From UHGV virus genome UHGV-0144373: 64,000 nt of DNA. The stretch is one strand, 5' to 3'. The stretch comes from a virus. This document shows, in pieces, positions 3 through 51,282 of the stretch. A program made the position numbers and the translations under genes. A model generated the notes under the pieces. That model did not search any database. It saw only the letters and a program-made list of their open reading frames with translations, and was not told the origin of the DNA. How positions within the stretch are numbered: position 1 is the stretch's first letter; each line of letters begins with the position of its first letter.

Positions 3-5395
<5,393 letters not shown>

Positions 5396-5397
5396 TA

Positions 5398-6570
5398 ATG
5401 GCAGTAGGTGAAATTCAAATTAGTGCCTTGCCTCAAGCAGCCTTACCAATTGACCTTAGTGATATCTTCCATCTTAAACAGGGTATTGAGGATAAGAGAT
5501 GTACTCTTGAGCAATTACTTGCTCCACACTCAAACCTAAGAAATAACCCTCATGGTGTTACTAAAACACAAATTGGTTTAGATAATGTTATTAACGCTCT
5601 TCAGTTAGTTGCTGCAAATAACTTATCAGACATTGTTAATGTAGCTGAGGCAAGAGCAAATCTACAGATTATGTCTTCAGAAGAGGTTAATAATCTTGTT
5701 CAACAGCATATTCAGGACAAGAGTAACCCGCACAATACAACTAAGGCACAGGTAGGGTTGAGTAATGTTCAGAACTGGACAACATCTAACCTTTATAACG
5801 AAGATGCAGATAAGTACGCTACAGCAAGAGCAGTAAATAACTTGTACAAGGCTGTTCAGGCTTCCTATCCAGTAGGTACTATCCATCTTTCCATGAACTC
5901 TGCAAACCCTTCTACATATTTAATTTGTGGAGGAACTTGGGAGTTAGTTTCAAAAGGTAGGGCATTGGTTGGTTATGACTCTAATGCAAGACCAGCAGGC
6001 TCTGTATTTGGTGCTTCAACTGTCACTTTGTCAGTTAATAATATGCCTCAACACTCACACTCTGTATCTCTTAGTGGTGGTGGTCACACTCATAATGCAA
6101 CTGTATCAATTTCAGCTTTTGACTATGGGGCTAAGACTACTAACTCTTTTGACTATGGAACAAAAGCTACTAACACAACTGGCAACCATACACACGGTGT
6201 GTCAGGCAACACAAGTTCAAATGGTACTCATAACCATGATGTGTACCCTAGAGAAGCTGATGGTACTGGTAATGCTGTAGCTGACTCTGATGGTGGCGGT
6301 GCAAGAAGGACATCAAGAACCTCTAGTGACGGTGCACACTCACATAGCTTTAGTGTTACATCTGGTGCATCCGGTGACCACAGCCACACAGTCGGTATTG
6401 GTGCTCACAGCCACACAGTCGGTATTGGCTCACATACACACAGTGGTACTGTGACAGTCTCTTCTTCTGAGCATACACATAGTGGTAATACGAATAGTGT
6501 TGGTGGAGGTCAGGCAGTTAATATTGAACAGCCATCCTTCGTACTGTATGTATGGCAGAGAACAGCTTAA
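5398..6570 (+). CDS. tail fiber protein with C-terminal His-x-His repeats
   Basis: C-terminal half carries repeated GxHxHS/HSHTVGIG motifs of the kind that coordinate metal in phage fibers such as T4 gp12/gp37; the C-terminal region is shared with the next gene. Confidence 0.6.
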   Translation: MAVGEIQISALPQAALPIDLSDIFHLKQGIEDKRCTLEQLLAPHSNLRNNPHGVTKTQIGLDNVINALQLVAANNLSDIVNVAEARANLQIMSSEEVNNLVQQHIQDKSNPHNTTKAQVGLSNVQNWTTSNLYNEDADKYATARAVNNLYKAVQASYPVGTIHLSMNSANPSTYLICGGTWELVSKGRALVGYDSNARPAGSVFGASTVTLSVNNMPQHSHSVSLSGGGHTHNATVSISAFDYGAKTTNSFDYGTKATNTTGNHTHGVSGNTSSNGTHNHDVYPREADGTGNAVADSDGGGARRTSRTSSDGAHSHSFSVTSGASGDHSHTVGIGAHSHTVGIGSHTHSGTVTVSSSEHTHSGNTNSVGGGQAVNIEQPSFVLYVWQRTA

Positions 6571-6616: not shown

Positions 6617-8971
6617 ATGGCAGATTACAAGTTGAGTGAGTTAAACTCGATTGACACAATTCGTTCAGACGACCTCCTTCATGTCAGAGTTAAAAAGAGA
6701 CCTGAAATGCTGGGTGATGAAGACCGTCGAATGACCTATCAAGACTTCTTAGCATCTTTTAAACTTGAAAGATTTGTTCAGATTGCTGGTAGCACTATGA
6801 CTGGTGACTTAGGGATTGTTAAGTTACTTTATGGTGGTAAGGTAGTCTTTGACCCAACAGGTTCTTCTGAGATTACTATTGGGGATGTTTTAAAGACTTT
6901 TAAAATCAACGCAAATGGCCTTAAACTAACTATTGCAGATGCTTCAAGGTCAGCAACTGTTTATCATACTCTGAATAAACCAAGTCCTAATGAGCTTGGC
7001 ATGAGAACTAATGAAGAGAATGATGCGAGATACTCAAGATTAGCTGTGAATAACACCTTTAGAGGTACTCAATCTATTCTCTCTGACAATGAAGCCTTTA
7101 TTATTAAGAATATTACACAAGGGACACCGCTATATATTCGTGGCCAAGATGCAGATGGGACTAACAGATGGTATCTAGGTAATGACCTTAAAGGTACAAA
7201 TAACCTTGTATTGAAGAATGTAAAAACTGATGTTTCAATTGCTATTTTAGAAAATTTGGTGACAGTCAATAGAACTCTTCAAATCGCTGGTCAAGTTCAG
7301 CCTTCAAGTTTTGCCAACTTAGATGCTAGATATTTTACCCAGACAGCAGCTAATCAGAGATTTGCACAGTTAGCTGGTGATAATACTTTTAGTGGCGTGA
7401 ACACATTTAACCAGACTTTATCAATTTTGACGAATAGCGGAGCCTTAAGGTTAAAAAATACTGTAGCAAATGGCGCACTGTACATTAAAGGTGAAAGTAG
7501 TGATGGCTCTGGTAAGTGGTATGTAGGTAATGGCGATAATACACCTGCTGTATTAATCCACAACTATAAGTATGGCTCTAATCTTAGACTTGATGATGGT
7601 TATGTTGAAGTTAACAAGCAGCTTAGGGTTGTTGGTCAAGTTCAACCTTCTGATTGGACTAACATTGACTCTAGATATATTCCAGCAGCTACTTTGAGTA
7701 GTCTTGCTAAGATTAATGTGGCAAACACTTTTACAAATGTGCAGACTATTGTATCTAACAATGAAGGTCTAGTATTGAGGAACTTAACACAGGGAAAGCC
7801 ACAATATATCCGTGGTGTTGATACCCAGAATGTATCTAGGTGGTGGGTAGGTGTGGGTGGCACAAATTCTACTGATGTGGCATTAAACAACAGCTACTCT
7901 GGGACTCAAATTACTCTTATGCCCTCAGCGATTAAGGCTAATAAGAATCTAACCATTACTGGTCAAGTACAACCTTCTGATTGGTCTAACTTAGATGCTA
8001 GATATTTCTTAAAAACAAAACTGTTAAACCAACCTTTAATGACAAGGACAACTAATAGATTGGATGACCCATCAGCATTCAATAAAGATTATTCAGGGTT
8101 TGTAAGAAACAATGGTATTGAGCAGGGTCTGAAAGATTTAGCCATCCATGTCGCACATTCTGCTGGTATTGCTCATGCCAGAGGTATTGCTTTTACCTAT
8201 GGGTCTAAAGGTCTTGATGTCTTCACATATGCTTATGGGCCAGATGGAGCATATGTTGGAGAGGCGCAGTTGTATTCAACGGCATTTAAACCAACCCCTT
8301 CAGGTATTGGTGCATATACTAAAGCTGAGACTGACCAGAAGATTGCACAGGCAGTAAGTGACTCTACAGACCTTAATAAAATCTACCCAGTTGGTATTGT
8401 AACGTGGTTTAACAGTAATGTTAACCCTAACACAGCGTTGCCTGGGTTAACTTGGACGTACCTGAACAATGGTGTTGGTAGAACTATCAGAATCGCAGCA
8501 GCAAACGGTTCAGATGTTGCTACAACTGGCGGTTCAGATTCTGTAACGTTAGCTGTTGGTAACTTACCATCACATACCCATAGTTTCTCTGCTACCACTT
8601 CATCTTTTGATTATGGTACGAAGGGAACTAACAGTACGGGTGGACACACTCACTCTGGTAGTGGTTCTACTAGCACAAATGGTAACCATACTCACTACAT
8701 CGCGGCATGGAACGGGACTGGTGCAGGTGGTAATAAGATGTCATCGTATGCCGTAGCATCTAGGGCGGGTGGGAGTAACACTGATGCAGCAGGAAACCAC
8801 AGCCACACTTTCTCTTTCTCAACTGACAATACTGGCGCTCACACACACTCTGTAGGTATTGGTGCTCACACTCATACAGTTAGTGGTAACACTGGTGGTA
8901 CAGGTTCTGGTTCAGCATTTAGTGTTACTAACCAGTTCTATAAGTTAATGGCTTGGGTAAGAACTGCTTAA
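6617..8971 (+). CDS. long tail fiber protein
   Basis: 784 aa; three internal modules each ending in a GQVQPS(D/S)(W/F)xN(L/I)D(A/S)RY motif; C-terminal HxH repeats matching those of the 5398-6570 product. Confidence 0.65.
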
Positions 8972-12248: not shown

Positions 12249-12578
12249 TTAATCTGCCAACCTTAAATTGAAATTAACACCAAATTTTTCACACACTTCC
12301 AACATATACTCAAGGGAAACATTCCCAGTGAGGTGGATTATGTTGGATACACGAGCCTGAGAGATACCACAAATTTTAGCAACTTGTTCTTGAGAAAGAC
12401 CTCTGGATTTAATCTCTCTCTTAAAACGATGTGAAACGAAGTCTCTCATTTCGTCTACATCCATTGGACAAGTATAACTCTCCATTTCATCCTCTCTATC
12501 AGCCTCCCAATCATCTTGTGGAGCATAAGGGTCAAAAACCTCATTCATCTTTCTTCTTCCGTTTGCGTGAAGTGTCAA
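12249..12578 (-). CDS. putative HTH DNA-binding protein
   Basis: Helix-turn-helix-like segment LSQEQVAKICGISQARVSNIIH. Confidence 0.45.
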   Translation of the reverse strand: MTLHANGRRKMNEVFDPYAPQDDWEADREDEMESYTCPMDVDEMRDFVSHRFKREIKSRGLSQEQVAKICGISQARVSNIIHLTGNVSLEYMLEVCEKFGVNFNLRLAD

Positions 12579-18896: not shown

Positions 18897-19068
18897 TTTT
18901 ACTCCCTCTAAAATCATTAACCACATACATTACTGCAAAAAATTATAAAAAGCAAGTTGACAATGTACTTGACAAGGTGTTAATCTTTGCGAAGTGGGTT
19001 TTTACTTAAAAGGTTACTTAACAGTTTAACTATACAGATACTTTAAAACTCTTAAAAGATTATTTAAT

Positions 19069-19109
19069 AGCTTTTAAAAAGCTTTAAAGTATAACGTATA
19101 GAATACGTT
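19069..19109. promoter_or_regulatory. palindromic elements in the divergent intergenic region
   Basis: Perfect palindrome AGCTTTTAAAAAGCT (19069-19083) and inverted repeat AACGTAT-AGA-ATACGTT (19093-19109) between the divergently transcribed blocks; two TTGACA hexamers lie at 18956-18974. Confidence 0.35.
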
Positions 19110-19153
19110 AAGATAAAAGATTAAAACTTAATAGTTACTTAAAAGAGGCTTAC

Positions 19154-19576
19154 ATGCAGAAAATGTTTGTTCACCCAGACATAGCTGACTTTGTTAGAGC
19201 TTTGCAGAAGTTGGAAGAACTTGACATTGCTGCTCAACGGGAATATGCTCACCATCACAGGAGAATGGTTGATATACAACATGAAATAGAGTTGTCTGAA
19301 AACTATGAAGATGACTTAAAATGCTCTGTATTTGAGCATATGAAAGATGTTGCTACAGCGAGACGTAAAGCTAAAGACACAGTTGCTTTACTAGATTCTC
19401 TTAAAAAGAGGTTGCAAAGTGGTACAGACCTGTGTAATCTAGCGTCACTGATTAACGATGTTGAAACTTCTTGGGATAGGCACTATTATCCACGTTCTGA
19501 AAAGACACTTGACTTTTCTTCATCTGAAAACTTAAAATGTTCTAGAAAGAAACTTAACCAAATGAGAGAGAAATAA
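19154..19576 (+). CDS. hypothetical protein
   Basis: 140 aa; AAGAGG upstream of the ATG; first gene of the rightward block. Confidence 0.5.
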   Translation: MQKMFVHPDIADFVRALQKLEELDIAAQREYAHHHRRMVDIQHEIELSENYEDDLKCSVFEHMKDVATARRKAKDTVALLDSLKKRLQSGTDLCNLASLINDVETSWDRHYYPRSEKTLDFSSSENLKCSRKKLNQMREK

Positions 19577-46150: not shown

Positions 46151-46167
46151 TAAGTAATTTCTTAAAA

Positions 46168-46189
46168 GGCTGCTTCGGCGGCCTTTTTT
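46168..46189 (+). terminator. intrinsic terminator
   Basis: GGCTGC-TTCG-GCGGCC followed by TTTTTT; a perfect TATAAT follows at 46214-46219. Confidence 0.65.
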
Positions 46190-46250
46190 ATTTGTATTTT
46201 GTGCAGAGTGCTGTATAATTGTTGTCACGATAAACTAAACAGGAGAACCA

Positions 46251-46799
46251 ATGAAGAAATTGATTCTAGGTTTGTGCTTAATGTTTACAGCACACTTATC
46301 TTATGCAGTTGACTGCCCAGAGCTATCAATTAGCCAAAAAGTAAACATGTTAAAAGCTTACCAGTATGGCGAGAATAACATGGGTAAAGGTTGGGGTATC
46401 ACTCTAGCTGCTATAGCCTTACAAGAGTCAGAGTTAGGTCTGAAGGTAGAGAATAAAAAGACACATGATTATGGTATTTTCCAGAACCACTTGAAGACTG
46501 TTGTAAAGCGTAACAAAATCAGTCCTAATGTGGCTAAAAAGAAACTCTTAAAAGATTTTGACTATGCTGCAAAGGAAACTCACAAAGAGCTTGAATTTTG
46601 GACTAAGGTACACGGTCAACCAAAGTCAAAGAAGACTTTACAAAAAGTTTTAGCATCATATAATGCTGGGTATTCGTACAAAATCCCTAAAGCTAAGAAA
46701 TATTCTCAAGATGTCTATAACAACATGAAAGTCATTGCTCAATGTGAATTTGCAACAAACATTTCTAAGGTAAACCATGAAAAAATTAAAAAAGTCTGA
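46251..46799 (+). CDS. lytic transglycosylase (SLT domain) with signal peptide
   Basis: N-terminal MKKLILGLCLMFTAHLSYA signal peptide; SLT motifs ALQESEL, DYGIFQ and YNAGYSY. Confidence 0.6.
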   Translation: MKKLILGLCLMFTAHLSYAVDCPELSISQKVNMLKAYQYGENNMGKGWGITLAAIALQESELGLKVENKKTHDYGIFQNHLKTVVKRNKISPNVAKKKLLKDFDYAAKETHKELEFWTKVHGQPKSKKTLQKVLASYNAGYSYKIPKAKKYSQDVYNNMKVIAQCEFATNISKVNHEKIKKV

Positions 46800-47472
46800 T
46801 GAAGTACTGTGTCATGCTTACGACTTACATCCTCATGAGTTAGGTCTTGATTCCTGTGTATGGACTCCAGAACAGTGTAGGGATTTTGAAGACACTGCAA
46901 GAGAAGTTGTATGTTCACTCGAAGAGTTCCACACATCAGAGCCAATTGTGAATGTTGTAGATAAAGAGACTGGACAAACTATAGGTGTAAGTCATGATAG
47001 CTTAGTCATAGTCAATAAAGACCTTGTAGAAAAAGGTAACCTCATCTTAGCAGATATTGATGGTGTTCTTACAAATTTTAATCACGAAGATTACTCAACG
47101 GAATTGACTGATGGTTCATTCTCACAGTATACCAATCTTCTTGATTCTGTAAGAGCAAAGCCAACGTATGTTTTCAATATCATTGATGCAATTGCTAATC
47201 ATGCTGCCATTGGACTCTTGACAGCGAGAGGTGAATCTCAGAGAATACCTACTGAGATGTTTTTAAGGCATAACACAGAGCATGACTACATGCTCTTTAT
47301 GCGTGGTTTTGGGACTAACTCTATAAGTGCAGAAAGTTTGAAAGTGAGGATGATTCAGTCTTGCATTCTGCCTTACTTTAATATAGTATGTTTTATAGAA
47401 GACACAGAGAAGAATGTGCAGAAGGTGAACAGAATCCTTCCACACATCAAAACCATGTTAGTTAAACATTGA
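46777..47472 (+). CDS. putative HAD-family phosphatase
   Basis: LILADIDGVLT resembles HAD motif I (hhhDxDGxL); weak. Confidence 0.3.
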   Translation: MKKLKKSDEVLCHAYDLHPHELGLDSCVWTPEQCRDFEDTAREVVCSLEEFHTSEPIVNVVDKETGQTIGVSHDSLVIVNKDLVEKGNLILADIDGVLTNFNHEDYSTELTDGSFSQYTNLLDSVRAKPTYVFNIIDAIANHAAIGLLTARGESQRIPTEMFLRHNTEHDYMLFMRGFGTNSISAESLKVRMIQSCILPYFNIVCFIEDTEKNVQKVNRILPHIKTMLVKH

Positions 47473-47482
47473 GAGAAAACTT

Positions 47483-47947
47483 ATGAACAATATCATTACG
47501 GTAGCACTTGACGTTACGGCAAACAAATCTGAAGTAGTTCGTAACATTATCAAGAGCAACTTTGAGGGTAAAATCTTCCGTGCTGTCAACGTAAAAGCAG
47601 ACGGTAACATCCGAGAGTATCGTGCTCTTTTGAATGTTAAGAAACACGTAAAAGGTTCTGGCTCAACGACAGCACATAAAGAAAATCTGATGACTATCTA
47701 TGATATGGGTATGGCTTCAGAATTAGGTGCTGAAGGTATCGTTAAAGAAGGTGCTCCGTATCGCTCTTTCAATCTGGAAACTACTCTCATGCTTTCCTTT
47801 ACAAGTGGTTCTAAAACAACTACTTATCTCTTTACTGATGCTGCAACGGTATCTGCTATCAAGGATAGCACTGTCAAAGCTGGGGTAGCTGCTGCTGCAA
47901 AAGCTTCTTCGATGGCTGCAAATGTCCTTGCTAAAGTCCTCGGTTAA
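47483..47947 (+). CDS. hypothetical protein
   Basis: 154 aa with an Ala-rich C-terminus, followed by a strong terminator. Confidence 0.45.
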   Translation: MNNIITVALDVTANKSEVVRNIIKSNFEGKIFRAVNVKADGNIREYRALLNVKKHVKGSGSTTAHKENLMTIYDMGMASELGAEGIVKEGAPYRSFNLETTLMLSFTSGSKTTTYLFTDAATVSAIKDSTVKAGVAAAAKASSMAANVLAKVLG

Positions 47948-47958
47948 GGTTAAGATAC

Positions 47959-47980
47959 AGGCTCCTTCGGGAGCCTTTTT
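47959..47980 (+). terminator. intrinsic terminator
   Basis: AGGCTCC-TTCG-GGAGCC followed by TTTTT. Confidence 0.75.
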
Positions 47981-47999
47981 CATTTTAGGAGATTGTTAA

Positions 48000-48347
48000 A
48001 TGACATTTAAAGAGTTCTGTCAAGCTACCTTCATAATTGTTTTCTTAGTTGGGGCAGGTGTCTGGGGAGGATACTCTTACAGAGACTATCAAGTTGCTGA
48101 AGCTGAGCTAAACAATCAAAAGCTCATAAGTGTTGCTAAAGATGCTTATCAGGAAGGTTTAGTCACACTGAGCACCAATTACAAAAATGATTTGAAAGAT
48201 GTGCTTGCTAAGAATAAGCATACAAAAGAGGTACTAACATATGAAAAAACTAAGCCAGAGTTTTATAATGTTTGTGTTACTGATAACTATGTCAGGGTGT
48301 TCAACGAACAAAGTGAACAGTACATTCAAAAACTCCCAAGTAAGTGA
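48000..48347 (+). CDS. putative i-spanin (Rz-like)
   Basis: N-terminal TM helix (ATFIIVFLVGAGVWGGY) followed by a coiled-coil-like periplasmic domain; overlaps the next ORF in another frame. Confidence 0.35.
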   Translation: MTFKEFCQATFIIVFLVGAGVWGGYSYRDYQVAEAELNNQKLISVAKDAYQEGLVTLSTNYKNDLKDVLAKNKHTKEVLTYEKTKPEFYNVCVTDNYVRVFNEQSEQYIQKLPSK

Positions 48348-48510
48348 GAGTGACAAGTACACTCAAGAAGAATCAAGATTCACTGTCAAAGGTAATACTG
48401 GCAGCGATGTGGCAGCAGCCCTTGAGTTCTATCGTGATGGATTTTACCAGTGCACAATCAAAGCTAATAACCTTATTGATATGATTTTATTAGGAAACAA
48501 ACAGCAATGA
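48241..48510 (+). CDS. putative o-spanin (Rz1-like lipoprotein)
   Basis: Signal peptide plus lipobox-like LLITMSGC; overlaps the 3' part of the preceding gene out of frame, the classic Rz/Rz1 arrangement. Confidence 0.35.
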   Translation: MKKLSQSFIMFVLLITMSGCSTNKVNSTFKNSQVSESDKYTQEESRFTVKGNTGSDVAAALEFYRDGFYQCTIKANNLIDMILLGNKQQ

Positions 48511-48776
48511 CAGAGAATGAAGATACTTTTTACATAGAAGGGTACTTACTGTTGCCACGACCAAAAGAAACTTATATGCGAATTGATTTCTCACCAACCA
48601 TTATGGATAATGTGATGTGCCATATCTTTATGCAAGGTGTCACAGCACAGCTTAAGTATGTTGGTAAAGAGTGCAAAATAAAGGTTGACACTCATCCAGA
48701 AATCAAAGAGAATCACTACACATGGTTCTTACCAGACTCTAAAGAAATCTTAGCAGTTCTTAAAACGAGGAAGTAG
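48507..48776 (+). CDS. hypothetical protein
   Basis: 89 aa. Confidence 0.4.
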   Translation: MTENEDTFYIEGYLLLPRPKETYMRIDFSPTIMDNVMCHIFMQGVTAQLKYVGKECKIKVDTHPEIKENHYTWFLPDSKEILAVLKTRK

Positions 48777-48778
48777 CT

Positions 48779-49102
48779 ATGCAGATTAATGGAAGAGACT
48801 TTGTAGCCGTTTACTACGAGAAGGATAAAGAGGTTGGTGTAGCACAAGTAACCTATGGCAATGGTAAGTGGCTATATGGAACAATCGCAGTAGTAGGAAC
48901 AAGAAGTGATACAAAAACCTTTAAAGATTGTGTTGACCTTCTTGAAGAATCCATCCAGAATCATTGGTGTCTGATATGGATGACTGACAACGAAGTGATG
49001 GAGCGTTTCAAAAAGATTGATATCAACATTGATAGTATTGAGCATGTTGATTTATATGAACTGACCGAAAAGGTAAACTATGAAAGCTCTAGAGGTAATT
49101 GA
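48779..49102 (+). CDS. hypothetical protein
   Basis: 107 aa. Confidence 0.4.
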   Translation: MQINGRDFVAVYYEKDKEVGVAQVTYGNGKWLYGTIAVVGTRSDTKTFKDCVDLLEESIQNHWCLIWMTDNEVMERFKKIDINIDSIEHVDLYELTEKVNYESSRGN

Positions 49103-49307
49103 CAAAGATACTGGAGAAGTCACGTCAGCATGTGTTTTCGTGAGTCACGACACAGTGATACCATTTTACAACCTCGACAGTTTTAGTTTTACAGGGATAA
49201 CTTCAGAGGAATACTTTGAAGACCTCACCTTTGCCAGAATCTCTATAGACACATTCTATAAATGCTTCTATGATGAAGGTAAAGAATTACGAGAAACTGA
49301 ACTATAA
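49080..49307 (+). CDS. hypothetical protein
   Basis: 75 aa. Confidence 0.35.
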   Translation: MKALEVIDKDTGEVTSACVFVSHDTVIPFYNLDSFSFTGITSEEYFEDLTFARISIDTFYKCFYDEGKELRETEL

Positions 49308-49319
49308 GGTATATATTAT

Positions 49320-49520
49320 ATGGCTGACTTCTGCAAAGACTGTTCTATCGAAATGTTCGGACGTGATACAGGTGACTTAAAAGGTCTTATCACTGAAGAT
49401 GACTTTAAAGCTGGCTATGCAATGCCAGTAATCTGTGAAGGTTGTGGGTGCATCTGGGTAGACCACGAAGGACAGCGTGTAAAACCTTCAGAAGATAAAG
49501 AATCTTGGGAGAGATGTTAA
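49320..49520 (+). CDS. small zinc-ribbon protein
   Basis: CKDC ... CEGCGC cysteine pairs. Confidence 0.4.
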   Translation: MADFCKDCSIEMFGRDTGDLKGLITEDDFKAGYAMPVICEGCGCIWVDHEGQRVKPSEDKESWERC

Positions 49521-50306
49521 ATGGGTATTGTAAAAATAATCAATGGTGATATCTTTGCCGCATTTGATAAAGGTAAGTTTGACATCATCGGTCACGGTTG
49601 CAACTGTATGAATTTAATGGGTGCAGGTATTGCAGCAACTATTTCTAAGCGTTATCCAAAAGTGTATGATACTGACACAGAAGTTTACCTGTTTGCAGGC
49701 GGCATCCGTCACAAACCCTGTGAAAATTTACTGGGTAATTTCTCCGTAGCACGTTTAAAACAAGGCCGTATAGCTAACCTTTACACCCAACTTCATACTG
49801 GTAAAGATGCCCGATACAGTGCTTTAGAGTCATCTTTGAAACAGCTTAACAGATACTGTGAAGTTAACCAGTTGAAGAAAGTTGGTCTACCTATGATTGG
49901 TGCAGGTATTGGTGGACTCGACCCTCAAGCCGCCACAGTTATCATTAATCAGGTGATGAAAAGTGTAGATGTTTATCTGTATGTCTACGAAGGAGAGATG
50001 TACCACAAGTTACTCTCAGGTTGGAAGAACTACTGTGAACCAGAATACTTTGCAGGTGTAGTAACGTTCACAGATAATACAGTTACCCTCTTCAGACGAA
50101 GAAAAGGTAAGATACATCAAAGTAACCCTCCGGTTGAAAAGATGTCTCTAAGTAACGCTCTAGTTACCCACCTGTCGAAGAGCAATCACAGAATTGCTGT
50201 GACATTTGGTAGTGATGCCGATGCTTACATTTATGCAAGAACTGATGAGGATATCGAGGCAATCTTCTCTTCACCAGAAGTTACCTTCTTAGACGCAAAG
50301 AACTAA
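49521..50306 (+). CDS. macro-domain (ADP-ribose binding/processing) protein with C-terminal extension
   Basis: VKIINGDIF ... DIIGHGCNCMNLMGAGIAATI and VGLPMIGAGIGGLDPQAA align in pattern with YmdB/MacroD (GDIT ... IVNAAN ... GGGGVDGAIH and FPAISTGVYGYP). Confidence 0.6.
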   Translation: MGIVKIINGDIFAAFDKGKFDIIGHGCNCMNLMGAGIAATISKRYPKVYDTDTEVYLFAGGIRHKPCENLLGNFSVARLKQGRIANLYTQLHTGKDARYSALESSLKQLNRYCEVNQLKKVGLPMIGAGIGGLDPQAATVIINQVMKSVDVYLYVYEGEMYHKLLSGWKNYCEPEYFAGVVTFTDNTVTLFRRRKGKIHQSNPPVEKMSLSNALVTHLSKSNHRIAVTFGSDADAYIYARTDEDIEAIFSSPEVTFLDAKN

Positions 50307-50368
50307 GAAACTCTGTAGGATATTCACAATAGGCTAAGCCTTTCTTATCTGGTAAATTTTTCAGGTAA

Positions 50369-50560
50369 GGAGGGCTTTTTCATTTCAGATTTGTGCAGGT
50401 AGAGTTCTGTAGAGGAATCTATAGAGAAAATTTTGAACTCCAAAGAGCTTTTTCATTTTCAAACTGTGCAGGTAATCTCCAAAGAGCTTTTTCATTTTCA
50501 AAACGTGCAGAGAAAAATCAGGTCGGGCAAGAAAAATCATTTTAGAATTGTGCAGGTAGG
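50369..50560. repeat. four direct repeats of about 33 bp (iteron-like)
   Basis: Units at about 50369, 50440, 50478 and 50527 share GCTTTTTCATTTTCAAA(C/A)(T/C)GTGCAGGTA; a G-rich tract GGTAGGTGGGTGTAGGTGGGG follows. Confidence 0.8.
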
Positions 50561-50733
50561 TGGGTGTAGGTGGGGATGTCGCCATTTCTCACAAGGCTAC
50601 CACATCCGAAAAGAAAAGTCAACAGAAAAATTTGTAGCGGATTGAAAAATAATTCTTGATTTGTTTTCTGTTTTGTGGTATTCGCGTGCGCCCGTTTCAT
50701 TACATTTTGCCAAAAATATTTTTAAAATTTTTC

Positions 50734-50762
50734 TTGACTCCTCGAACGGGTTTTTATAGTAT
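50734..50762 (+). promoter_or_regulatory. sigma70-like promoter heading the small-gene cassette array
   Basis: TTGACT-N17-TAGTAT with an AT-rich UP-like tract upstream; same architecture and spacer (GGTTTTTA) as the type B promoters downstream. Confidence 0.5.
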
Positions 50763-50811
50763 TTGCATCAGACGGGGCGACAAGCTCCCTTCCTAAAATG
50801 GAAAGTCTAGA

Positions 50812-50870
50812 AAGTACTTTACAAGGGGCTTAAAAGTTGTTACCTTAAGCCCCAGATAAAGAGCTTTACC
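50812..50870 (+). promoter_or_regulatory. type A leader module copy 1
   Basis: AAGTACTTTACAA + hairpin GGGGCTTAA-(11 nt)-TTAAGCCCC + AGATAAAGAGCTTTACC, then the RBS. Confidence 0.6.
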
Positions 50871-50898
50871 AACAACCTTAAACTAGGAGAATATGAAA

Positions 50899-51282
50899 AT
50901 GGCATATCGTGCACCTAAATTCATCAATAAAGATAATTTCCGCAATGCACTGGAAAAATCACTTGATGAGAATTTTACAGGTCAGATTATTGTTGTTCAC
51001 GCATTCAATTTTAAGTATGATATTAACGGGAATAAAATCAATCATTACACGGCAACAATGTTAGATGGCACGCTTTCAAGTGAAAAAGCCGTACTAAATG
51101 CGCTTGCAGGACGTGGTAAAAACCTGATAAGATGCGATAAGAGACGTTATCAGGGCGGCGCATATGGTTATGATGATACTGTTTATCATCTTGAAAACAT
51201 GGGCTATCAAGTAGAAAAAGCTGGAGTGTCGCAGATTATTGGTCGTGATGGTTATGTAACTATCTTCAAAATTAACAAATAA
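50899..51282 (+). CDS. cassette gene 1, hypothetical protein
   Basis: Start set at the second ATG (50899), whose spacing from GGAGA matches the other cassettes; 127 aa. Confidence 0.5.
   Translation: MAYRAPKFINKDNFRNALEKSLDENFTGQIIVVHAFNFKYDINGNKINHYTATMLDGTLSSEKAVLNALAGRGKNLIRCDKRRYQGGAYGYDDTVYHLENMGYQVEKAGVSQIIGRDGYVTIFKINK

Follow-up and report, generated by a model that had tools for sequence, protein, structure and literature searches.

What is the function of a bank of direct repeats lodged in a conserved non-coding region of a Felix O1-type phage? The DNA analyzed here, hereafter the window, is a 64,000-nucleotide stretch of the viral genome UHGV-0144373, which belongs to the genus Felixounavirus of the subfamily Ounavirinae. 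The repeats lie in 586 bp of non-coding DNA that separate the macro-domain gene from the first gene of the early cassettes. A 2-kb stretch around them matches 254 phage records, mostly Felix O1-type phages of Escherichia, Salmonella, and Shigella, the closest of which show 91–94% identity. A preliminary description of the sequence had proposed that the repeat block is either an operator array for a regulator of the early cassette region or an origin-type iteron set. The comparative data strongly support a functional, non-gene, and probably factor-binding repeat block beside a real sigma70-type promoter; either of the two proposed functions is tentative.

Organization of the repeat array

The array consists of four copies, all in one orientation, with start-to-start spacings of 73, 39, and 45 bp (Table 1). 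Alignment of all copies defines an 18-bp motif, TCATTT-N7-GTGCA(G/T), which is asymmetric, two-part, and non-palindromic and has less conserved flanks. The number and location of the repeats thus agree with the preliminary description, but its unit of about 33 bp does not, as the common core spans 24–30 bp. Copies 2 and 3 share 94% identity over 34 nt, and the left flank of copy 4, GGCAAGAAAAATCATTTT, is the same in Erwinia phage phiEa21-4. The array directly follows the terminator of the macro-domain operon, which is t13 in the Felix O1 list (PMC3185647) and whose stem is conserved in its 3′ half. A TTTTT(C/T)ATTT tail is common to several terminators of this phage, t2, t5, t13, and t35 among them, and at several terminators other than t13 it stands without a GTGCA box. 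Therefore, the left half of the motif is not diagnostic by itself, and it is the pair of half-sites that defines the motif.

Matches to the loose pattern TCATTT-N5-9-GTGCA number four in the 64-kb window, all of them within the array. In shuffled sequences its mean count is 0.42, and none of 100 shuffles reaches four; for the strict 24-mer, the chance expectation is 0.00. A weight matrix derived from the copies in 15 genomes gives 36–43 bits for the four copies and 25 bits for a further site at 46179, and scores stay at or below 9.3 at all other positions of the window and of the remaining Felix O1 genome.

Open reading frames do run through the repeats, and the preliminary description considered them probably not to be genes. 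Indeed, their frame, length, and strand differ from genus to genus; hence, they show no conservation at the protein level, and protein-coding repeats can be dismissed. One such frame is Felix O1 'ORF14' (8042–8254), a spurious ORF over repeats 2–4 that was listed by Whichard et al. (PMC3185647).

Table 1. Features of the repeat region and of the outlying motif copy (window coordinates; motif scores from the weight matrix).
Feature	Coordinates	Strand	Description
Fifth, weaker motif copy	46179–46219	+	TTTTTATTTGTATTTTGTGCAG; score 25.2 against a background maximum of 9.3
Macro-domain 'phosphatase' gene	49521–50306	+	Pfam Macro; upstream of the gap
Intrinsic terminator hairpin of the macro-domain operon	50336–50377	+	17-pair stem, then T-run; the T-tail TTTTTCATTT is also the left half of copy 1
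Repeat copy 1	50377–50401	+	TTTTCATTTCAGATTTGTGCAGGTA; score 42.0; core invariant across genera
Repeat copy 2	50450–50474	+	TTTTCATTTTCAAACTGTGCAGGTA; score 43.2; absent from one natural three-copy lineage
Repeat copy 3	50489–50513	+	TTTTCATTTTCAAAACGTGCAGAGA; score 39.5
Repeat copy 4	50534–50558	+	AAATCATTTTAGAATTGTGCAGGTA; score 36.2
Variable GC-rich tract	50559–50613		G-rich allele in the window, GGTGGGTGTAGGTGGGG...
Candidate leftward sigma70 promoter	50594–50622	-	TTGACT, 17-nt spacer ending in TGG, TAGCCT; from sequence only
Nearly invariant block	50614–50660		AAAAGTCAA(C/G)AGAAAAATTTGTAGCGGATTGAAAAATAATTCTTGA; left end is the reverse complement of TTGACT
A/T-rich tract, UP-element-like	50711–50733	+	CAAAAATATTTTTAAAATTTTTC; palindromic; directly 5′ of the -35
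Sigma70-type promoter	50734–50762	+	TTGACT-N17-TAGTAT; 9/12 consensus; first promoter of the early cassette block
Cassette-junction hairpin	50811–50867	+	AAAGTACTTTACAAGGGGCTTAA...TTAAGCCCC; contains an inverted repeat
First small early cassette gene present in the window	50893–51282		Downstream of the gap

Conservation across phages

In Felixounavirus, Suspvirus, Mooglevirus, and Kolesnikvirus, the location of the array is the same, namely after the macro-domain gene and before a conserved early promoter. Its position, strand, and copy order are kept in these four genera and in one additional contig, L127, whose macro-domain protein is 37% identical. About 40 more arrays are present in viral and metagenomic contigs, nearly all of them with four copies spaced by 73, 39, and 45 bp. 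Repeat number, which the preliminary description had singled out for comparison among relatives, is usually four and sometimes three or five, and the units are conserved: one lineage has three copies, copy 2 being missing, and the distant contig L127 has five recognizable copies, two of them degenerate. The spacing is 75, 41, and 45 bp in Mooglevirus and 37, 37, and 39 bp in Kolesnikvirus, giving an overall range of 37–75 bp. The repeat region is also matched by 29 Erwinia phages. In phiEa21-4, the repeat block is the sole portion of the query that still aligns; it comprises four copies, likewise spaced by 37, 37, and 39 bp, and the array ends in GTGCATAG.

Among 14 diverse sequences of Felixounavirus, Suspvirus, and Mooglevirus, 41 of the 44 core positions (93%) are invariant. 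The same sequences keep only 29% of the columns in the N7 spacer, 44% in the remaining array, and 13.5% in the GC-rich tract that follows. Every copy retains its own flanks across genera; hence, selection acts on each copy, and the similarity of the copies is not due to recent homogenization. The core persists even where other intergenic DNA is no longer alignable and the proteins are only about 40% identical. The sites are real, are confined to these positions, and experience strong purifying selection, and the array is among the best-conserved non-coding elements seen in the subfamily Ounavirinae.

A fifth site near 46.2 kb

A TGTGCAG-containing sequence had also been reported just upstream of a perfect TATAAT at 46214. 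It is indeed present, as TTTTTTATTTGTATTTTGTGCAG immediately upstream of TATAAT, and is a true fifth copy of the motif, corresponding to the 25-bit match of the weight matrix. The site (46179–46208) overlies the T-tail of the rIIB terminator together with the -35 and spacer of a strong promoter, the -10 of which is TATAAT at 46214–46219; the promoter core reads TTGAAA or TTGTAT, N16, and TATAAT. Its GTGCAG is fixed in at least five sequence variants, in which the flanking and spacer bases differ. The site is present in Felixounavirus, Suspvirus, and Mooglevirus. Across the whole 84.6-kb genome of phiEa21-4, neither the fifth site nor a motif at any promoter was detected. The 46214 promoter heads a 4.1-kb operon (46251–50306) that ends at the array and encodes an SLT-like protein, polynucleotide kinase, spanins, the macro-domain protein, and small unknown proteins.

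Promoters and other intergenic elements

Between the array and the first early gene lie several elements with very different degrees of conservation. The G-run described earlier, GGTAGGTGGGTGTAGGTGGGG at 50556–50576, is present, but it is one of two alleles and not a conserved feature. A C-rich allele of exactly equal length, CCCCTCTCCCCCTCTTACTCCCCC, is found in Felix O1, Suspvirus, and Mooglevirus, and the tract of Kolesnikvirus is also C-rich; the C-rich allele, which is C-rich on the strand where the window is G-rich, is probably the older of the two. The possibility that the G-rich tract is an inverted C-rich allele was rejected, because the alignment is no better than that of shuffled sequences (153 of 1000 do as well).

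In the nearly invariant block that follows, 83% of the 48 scored columns (50613–50660) are fixed across Felixounavirus, Suspvirus, and Mooglevirus. On the minus strand, TTGACT with a TA-starting hexamer 17 nt further on occurs in all 27 sequences of these three genera. The -10 hexamer is TAGCCT in the allele of the window and TAAGAG in the C-rich allele, while the equivalent site of Kolesnikvirus, TTGACG-N18-TATACT, matches 10 of 12 consensus positions. The candidate in the window scores under the promoter-scan threshold. As judged from its conserved sequence, this candidate leftward promoter points at the repeats and would transcribe back through them; it appears weak in the C-rich allele.

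The segment at 50610–50733 is A/T-rich. Within the intergenic region, no 40-bp stretch is less stable than the tract directly upstream of the rightward -35, the only one to reach the 99.4th percentile of the window; windows of 80–120 bp reach about the 90th. The rightward promoter TTGACT-N17-TAGTAT, proposed in the preliminary description, is found at that location, is conserved in relatives, and stands in front of a gene. Its TTGAC, TA.TAT, and the downstream TTGCATCA are kept in all genera, including phiEa21-4, and phage ASO1A carries a promoter annotation at this site. The preceding A/T tract and the predicted start region are likewise conserved in each genus. Because the first cassette gene (a Felix01p030 homologue) is missing in this phage, the promoter leader directly enters the cassette junction.

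Exclusion of other element types

Several familiar identities do not apply to the array. It is not a genome terminus or packaging site, since the annotated terminal repeat of a relative maps about 7 kb away: the 581-bp terminal repeat of Pr103Blw (MW481326), determined with PhageTerm (PMC8303462), aligns to 57377–57973 of the window with 87.5% identity. For UAB_Phi87, a 608-bp terminal repeat has been demonstrated experimentally. A structured RNA was also rejected; Rfam gave no relevant match at E-values up to 1, and folding was not better than that of shuffled sequence for either strand (z = -1.0 and +0.1). Mimicry of a host element was rejected, as no array was found in E. coli genomes, in plasmids, or in a set of one genome per bacterial species. 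Matches in the latter search came from unrelated, non-enterobacterial genomes.

DnaA boxes do not account for the repeats either. No consensus TT(A/T)TNCACA is present in 50300–50900, and the whole window holds 8 where 11 are expected. Read on the other strand, the repeats of the window contain ACCTGCACA or CTCTGCACG, which match 5–6 of the 9 positions of the box. The Kolesnikvirus copies reach 8 of 9 (CTATGCACA and TTATGCACG), in a stretch that is not conserved between genera. Mini-CRISPRs and solitary repeat units were set aside on inspection of the sequence, there being almost no spacer between units and no likeness. Nor is each repeat a sigma70 promoter, for no consistent -10 is found in either orientation, and the promoter-like matches inside the Kolesnikvirus array do not exceed shuffle expectation.

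An XRE-type protein (12249–12578, minus strand), the only Pfam-recognizable helix-turn-helix protein tested, is present in Felixounavirus, Suspvirus, and Mooglevirus. It is rejected as a universal binder of the repeats because it was not detected in Erwinia phages, none of which appeared among the tblastn matches at E-values up to 1e-3. Within the 4.1-kb operon flanking the array, no Rep, initiator, origin-binding, or other DNA-binding domain was found. The repeats are not described in the Felix O1 genome paper, the UAB_Phi87 paper, or the Bas63 knockout screen. Searches of the literature on iterons, origin, and transcriptome in the Felix O1 group returned no account of them and no description of a replication origin for this group.

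Possible functions of the array

The contrast in conservation between half-sites and spacer is the pattern that a protein footprint would leave. Combined with the confinement of the array to one place in the genome and with a fifth site embedded in a promoter, the half-site conservation most likely reflects a sequence-specific DNA-binding protein. At a probability of roughly 35%, the four repeats may be a bank of binding sites for one such putative protein acting on transcription, and this protein is probably phage-encoded; both the binding of the sites and the effect on transcription are what we infer from comparative sequence data. The protein would recognize the asymmetric two-part site TCATTT-N7-GTGCA(G), and its putative bank lies in the main non-coding control region of Ounavirinae. 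To the left of the bank is the terminator of the rIIB-to-macro-domain operon block, and to its right a conserved promoter region with the rightward early promoter (50734–50762) and the candidate leftward promoter (50622–50594). Occupancy of the fifth site would switch off or re-program the operon of the 46214 promoter in Felixounavirus, Suspvirus, and Mooglevirus, while occupancy of the array would insulate the two transcription blocks from each other, stopping both the read-through that enters from the left and the antisense transcripts that come from the right. According to the Felix O1 genome paper, the mechanism of temporal transcription control is not known (PMC3185647).

An operator bank is favored by the restriction of the motif to five places in a Felix-type genome, by the overlap of the fifth site with a promoter core, by the irregular spacing, and by the lack of an outstanding unwinding region. 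However, no copy in the array overlaps a recognizable promoter, the nearest repeat ending 176 bp upstream of the -35 at 50734, and about ten downstream cassette promoters carry no motif copy according to the weight matrix. Both observations weaken the earlier suggestion of an operator array that regulates the early cassettes. In addition, phiEa21-4 has the array yet no promoter site genome-wide, and the helix-turn-helix protein that was tested was not detected in Erwinia phages, which carry the array. Finally, the site is non-palindromic, whereas most repressor operators are palindromic.

About equally likely, and just as tentative, is a role as replication-origin iterons, at which an initiator or helicase loader would bind and flanking sigma70 transcription would open or prime the DNA for a T7-like replisome. 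The array does consist of three to five asymmetric, same-orientation repeats in a large conserved non-coding region, is confined to a single place in the whole phiEa21-4 genome, and is adjoined by promoters and an A/T-rich stretch, with the copies themselves distant from any promoter core. Felix O1 encodes a T7 gp4-like primase-helicase along with a polymerase of the PolA type and a gp6-like exonuclease, and it lacks a phage RNA polymerase; host-promoter-primed initiation is therefore plausible. Nevertheless, a T7-type replisome works without iterons and so would not require them. The 37–75-bp spacing is irregular compared with the contiguous period of about 22 bp in classical iterons, and the flanking DNA is not among the least stable of the window, where the minima lie at about 19.0 kb, 13.1 kb, and 58.0–58.5 kb. 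No switch of GC or AT skew occurs at the array, the skew merely tracking gene direction; no Rep-like or origin-binding domain is found in the flanking operon; and the fifth site sits in the promoter of an RNA-repair/lysis operon rather than that of an initiator gene. Thus, the origin-type iterons of the preliminary description are borne out in the asymmetric one-way repeats and their single location but not in regular spacing, an outstanding unwinding region, or a recognizable initiator gene. Under the origin model, the leftward promoter would produce a G-rich, R-loop-prone RNA in the C-rich allele. The leftward transcript would start with GAGGGGCUGG... in the ancestral allele and in Kolesnikvirus, although the allele of the window itself would give a C-rich, not G-rich, leftward RNA. 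A more specific proposal, that the array is the origin of a host-RNA-polymerase-dependent T7-like replisome, where a promoter firing into protein roadblocks yields the primer, or else a T5-like entry stop behind a 7.4-kb block, is unlikely. Taken separately, a boundary for DNA entry resembling the injection stop of T5, at which entry would pause until the early proteins have been produced, is very improbable. In its favor, the array is separated by about 7.4 kb, or roughly 8–9% of a genome of the relative's size, from the right end of the stretch that aligns with the relative's terminal repeat, and it coincides exactly with the inner border of the early cassette block, several cassettes of which peak at 5 min. 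Given that the terminal repeat of the relative maps to 57377–57973, the early cassettes fill the interval from the array to the genome end. The T5 stop region, too, is untranslated, repetitive, and conserved, and it delimits the first 7.9% of the genome (bioRxiv 10.1101/866236). Against this, neither two-step injection nor a leading end is known for Felix O1-type phages; among the proteins encountered, none was recognized as a homologue of T5 A1 or A2; and the intergenic region of the window has no consensus DnaA box. In L127, moreover, the array directly precedes TTAACA-type repeats resembling those of the terminal repeat, and the geometry may differ there.

The repeats might also act as RNA. 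Through leftward transcription that starts at the candidate promoter, or rightward transcription that passes the macro-operon terminator, they could yield an RNA bearing multiple sites, such as a sponge or decoy that captures an RNA-binding protein or nuclease, comparable to the repeat antitoxins of type III toxin–antitoxin systems. Such a role is improbable, although the copies share one orientation, stand nearly head to tail with a period of 39–45 nt for copies 2–4, and face a conserved leftward promoter candidate. An RT-PCR amplicon over the array end was positive in Felix O1 (PMC3185647). This 'ORF14' product begins immediately 5′ of copy 4, reaches into the C-rich tract, and has its maximum at 25 min, compared with 5 min for the macro-domain gene (PMC3185647). 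Since its downstream primer covers the proposed leftward -10, the template was most likely rightward RNA reading through the terminator; moreover, the assay did not distinguish strands, and its signal may stem from read-through or leftover DNA. The units are unequal (73, 39, and 45; 37, 37, and 39 in Kolesnikvirus), with a core of only 18–24 nt in common. The folding and Rfam results given above, and the lack of a related repeat in E. coli genomes, plasmids, and one genome per bacterial species, also speak against an RNA-level role, which would leave the fifth site, a promoter element, unexplained. Lastly, the array could be a functionless relic, duplicated terminator tails or cassette junctions that merely persist. 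The left half TTTTT(C/T)ATTT is an ordinary terminator tail, as at t2, t5, t13, and t35, and copies 2 and 3 are near-duplicates. This explanation is hardly credible, however, given a core that is kept amid unalignable surroundings and proteins of about 40% identity, the 93% of invariant core columns against 29% in N7, and the copy-specific flanks across genera, which exclude recent homogenization.

Comparison with known systems

The origin of phage lambda has four repeats bound by the O protein, and comparable iterons occur in plasmids such as P1, pSC101, and R6K. The present array resembles them in having three to five asymmetric one-way repeats in non-coding DNA, at a single place near A/T-rich DNA and promoters, and the extra site at a promoter recalls the autoregulation of Rep genes in iteron plasmids. 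It differs in its irregular spacing of 37–75 bp and in lacking an adjacent initiator gene and an outstanding unwinding element, and its extra site heads an RNA-repair/lysis operon. In phi29, four sites for protein p4 lie between divergent early and late promoters; these sites are inverted repeats, whereas the operators of P1 C1 are asymmetric. The operator bank proposed here shares with such multi-site operator regions several copies of one recognition sequence between oppositely directed promoters (the leftward one being a candidate) and a single site on another promoter; with the P1 C1 operators it shares asymmetry. Yet the copies in the array lie off the promoter cores, and the phi29 sites, as inverted repeats, are of another type.

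With the T5 injection stop signal, the array has in common that it is a conserved untranslated repeat region and that, about 8% into the genome, it delimits a terminal group of very early genes. Like the array, the T5 region is better conserved than its neighboring genes (bioRxiv 10.1101/866236). The T5 region, however, is 1.2–1.6 kb long and built from palindromes and nested inverted repeats, with DnaA boxes in pairs, in contrast to the four simple direct repeats found here, which lack a consensus DnaA box. The type III antitoxin RNAs of the ToxI kind and their phage mimics consist of tandem one-way units of about 36–45 nt in a transcribed region, as may be said of the array. Unlike ToxI, CptI, and TenpI, the units of the array are unequal and only partly similar, and they have no predicted structure, Rfam match, host counterpart, or adjacent toxin gene. 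A bank of direct repeats that binds protein is a well-known kind of element; this unusually well-conserved array is new.

Implications for Felix O1-type phages

Felix O1 and related phages are classic diagnostic tools that also find wide use in therapy and biocontrol. Because the array is highly conserved and located at the hinge of two transcription blocks, it offers a concrete bait for the missing regulator or initiator, and its conservation supplies a short list of bases for mutation. Its importance would rise sharply if it served as the origin or controlled DNA entry; under both versions, one conserved protein–DNA complex at this place would time the whole infection. For phage engineering, the array region should be kept intact when reporter or payload genes are added. 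Conversely, an array cloned on a plasmid might titrate an essential phage factor and thereby protect cells, just as cloned origins protect cells against lactococcal phages.

Variation of the Repeat Array and Its Flanks

Only three repeat copies are present in one natural lineage, formed by the related sequences L112, L051, L189, L240, L259, and L160, with spacings of 75 and 45 or of 75 and 39 and with a different flank at the first copy (CGGCCTTTTTCATTTT); thus, the array can do without one of its copies. L127, a divergent, Ounavirinae-like metagenomic contig, contains five recognisable copies (5337–6000 of its reverse complement), two of which are degenerate. They are arranged as 2 + 3, with a C-rich stretch between the two groups. 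Immediately after them come TTAACA-type repeats that resemble those found in the Felix-type terminal repeat. In this lineage, the genome end may adjoin the array.

For the tract downstream of repeat 4, there are two alleles, unrelated to each other and identical in length. On the + strand, the G-rich allele is carried by the window, Meda, Barry, and GEC_B1, and the C-rich allele by Felix O1, ASO1A, SUSP2, and Mooglevirus; the minus strand of the C-rich allele would be G-quadruplex-prone. The adjacent block (AAAAGTCAACAGAAAAATTTGTAGCGGATTGAAAAATAATTCTTGA) shows almost no variation over three genera. GAAAAAT occurs twice in this block, and most phages also have an inverted repeat of 6 bp there, TCAAGA...TCTTGA. 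Beyond the conserved promoter, the window lacks the first early cassette gene of its relatives (Felix01p030 and similar genes), and the cassette-junction hairpin AAAGTACTTTACAAGGGGCTTAA...TTAAGCCCC is joined directly to the promoter leader. The gene was probably lost through a deletion between short CTTTACA homologies.

The tail TTTTT(C/T)ATTT(T) is common to several intrinsic terminators and has a second role as a ribosome-site spacer, a promoter −35 region, or a repeat half-site.

Coordinates of the features discussed
Feature	Window	Strand	Related sequence	Context
XRE/HTH_3 protein, 109 aa	12249–12578	minus		within replication gene cluster
A/T-rich region	18927–19155			between DNA polymerase gene and next + strand gene
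Terminators with shared tail	46164–46195; 47959–47990; 50336–50387
Two-allele tract	50559–50613		L004 3170–3225	3′ of repeat 4
Low-variation block	50614–50660
Cassette-junction region	50763–50892
Probable genome end	57377–57973			non-coding

Other Regions of the Window

The probable genome end shows 87.5% identity to the annotated 581-bp direct terminal repeat of the relative Pr103Blw and is crowded with short CTTGTTAG, CTGTTAAGA, and TTAACA repeats. This region is probably both the physical end of the genome and the terminase recognition region.

Among the matches of the XRE/HTH_3 protein there are no Erwinia phages, and the sole match outside this phage group is in a Zymomonas record. Since this match lies beside a HigB-like toxin annotation, the protein may be antitoxin-like rather than a phage regulator.

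The divergent intergenic region next to the DNA polymerase gene has the lowest stability and the highest A/T content of all DNA in the window. It also contains tandem TTGACA boxes and is an alternative candidate for the replication origin.
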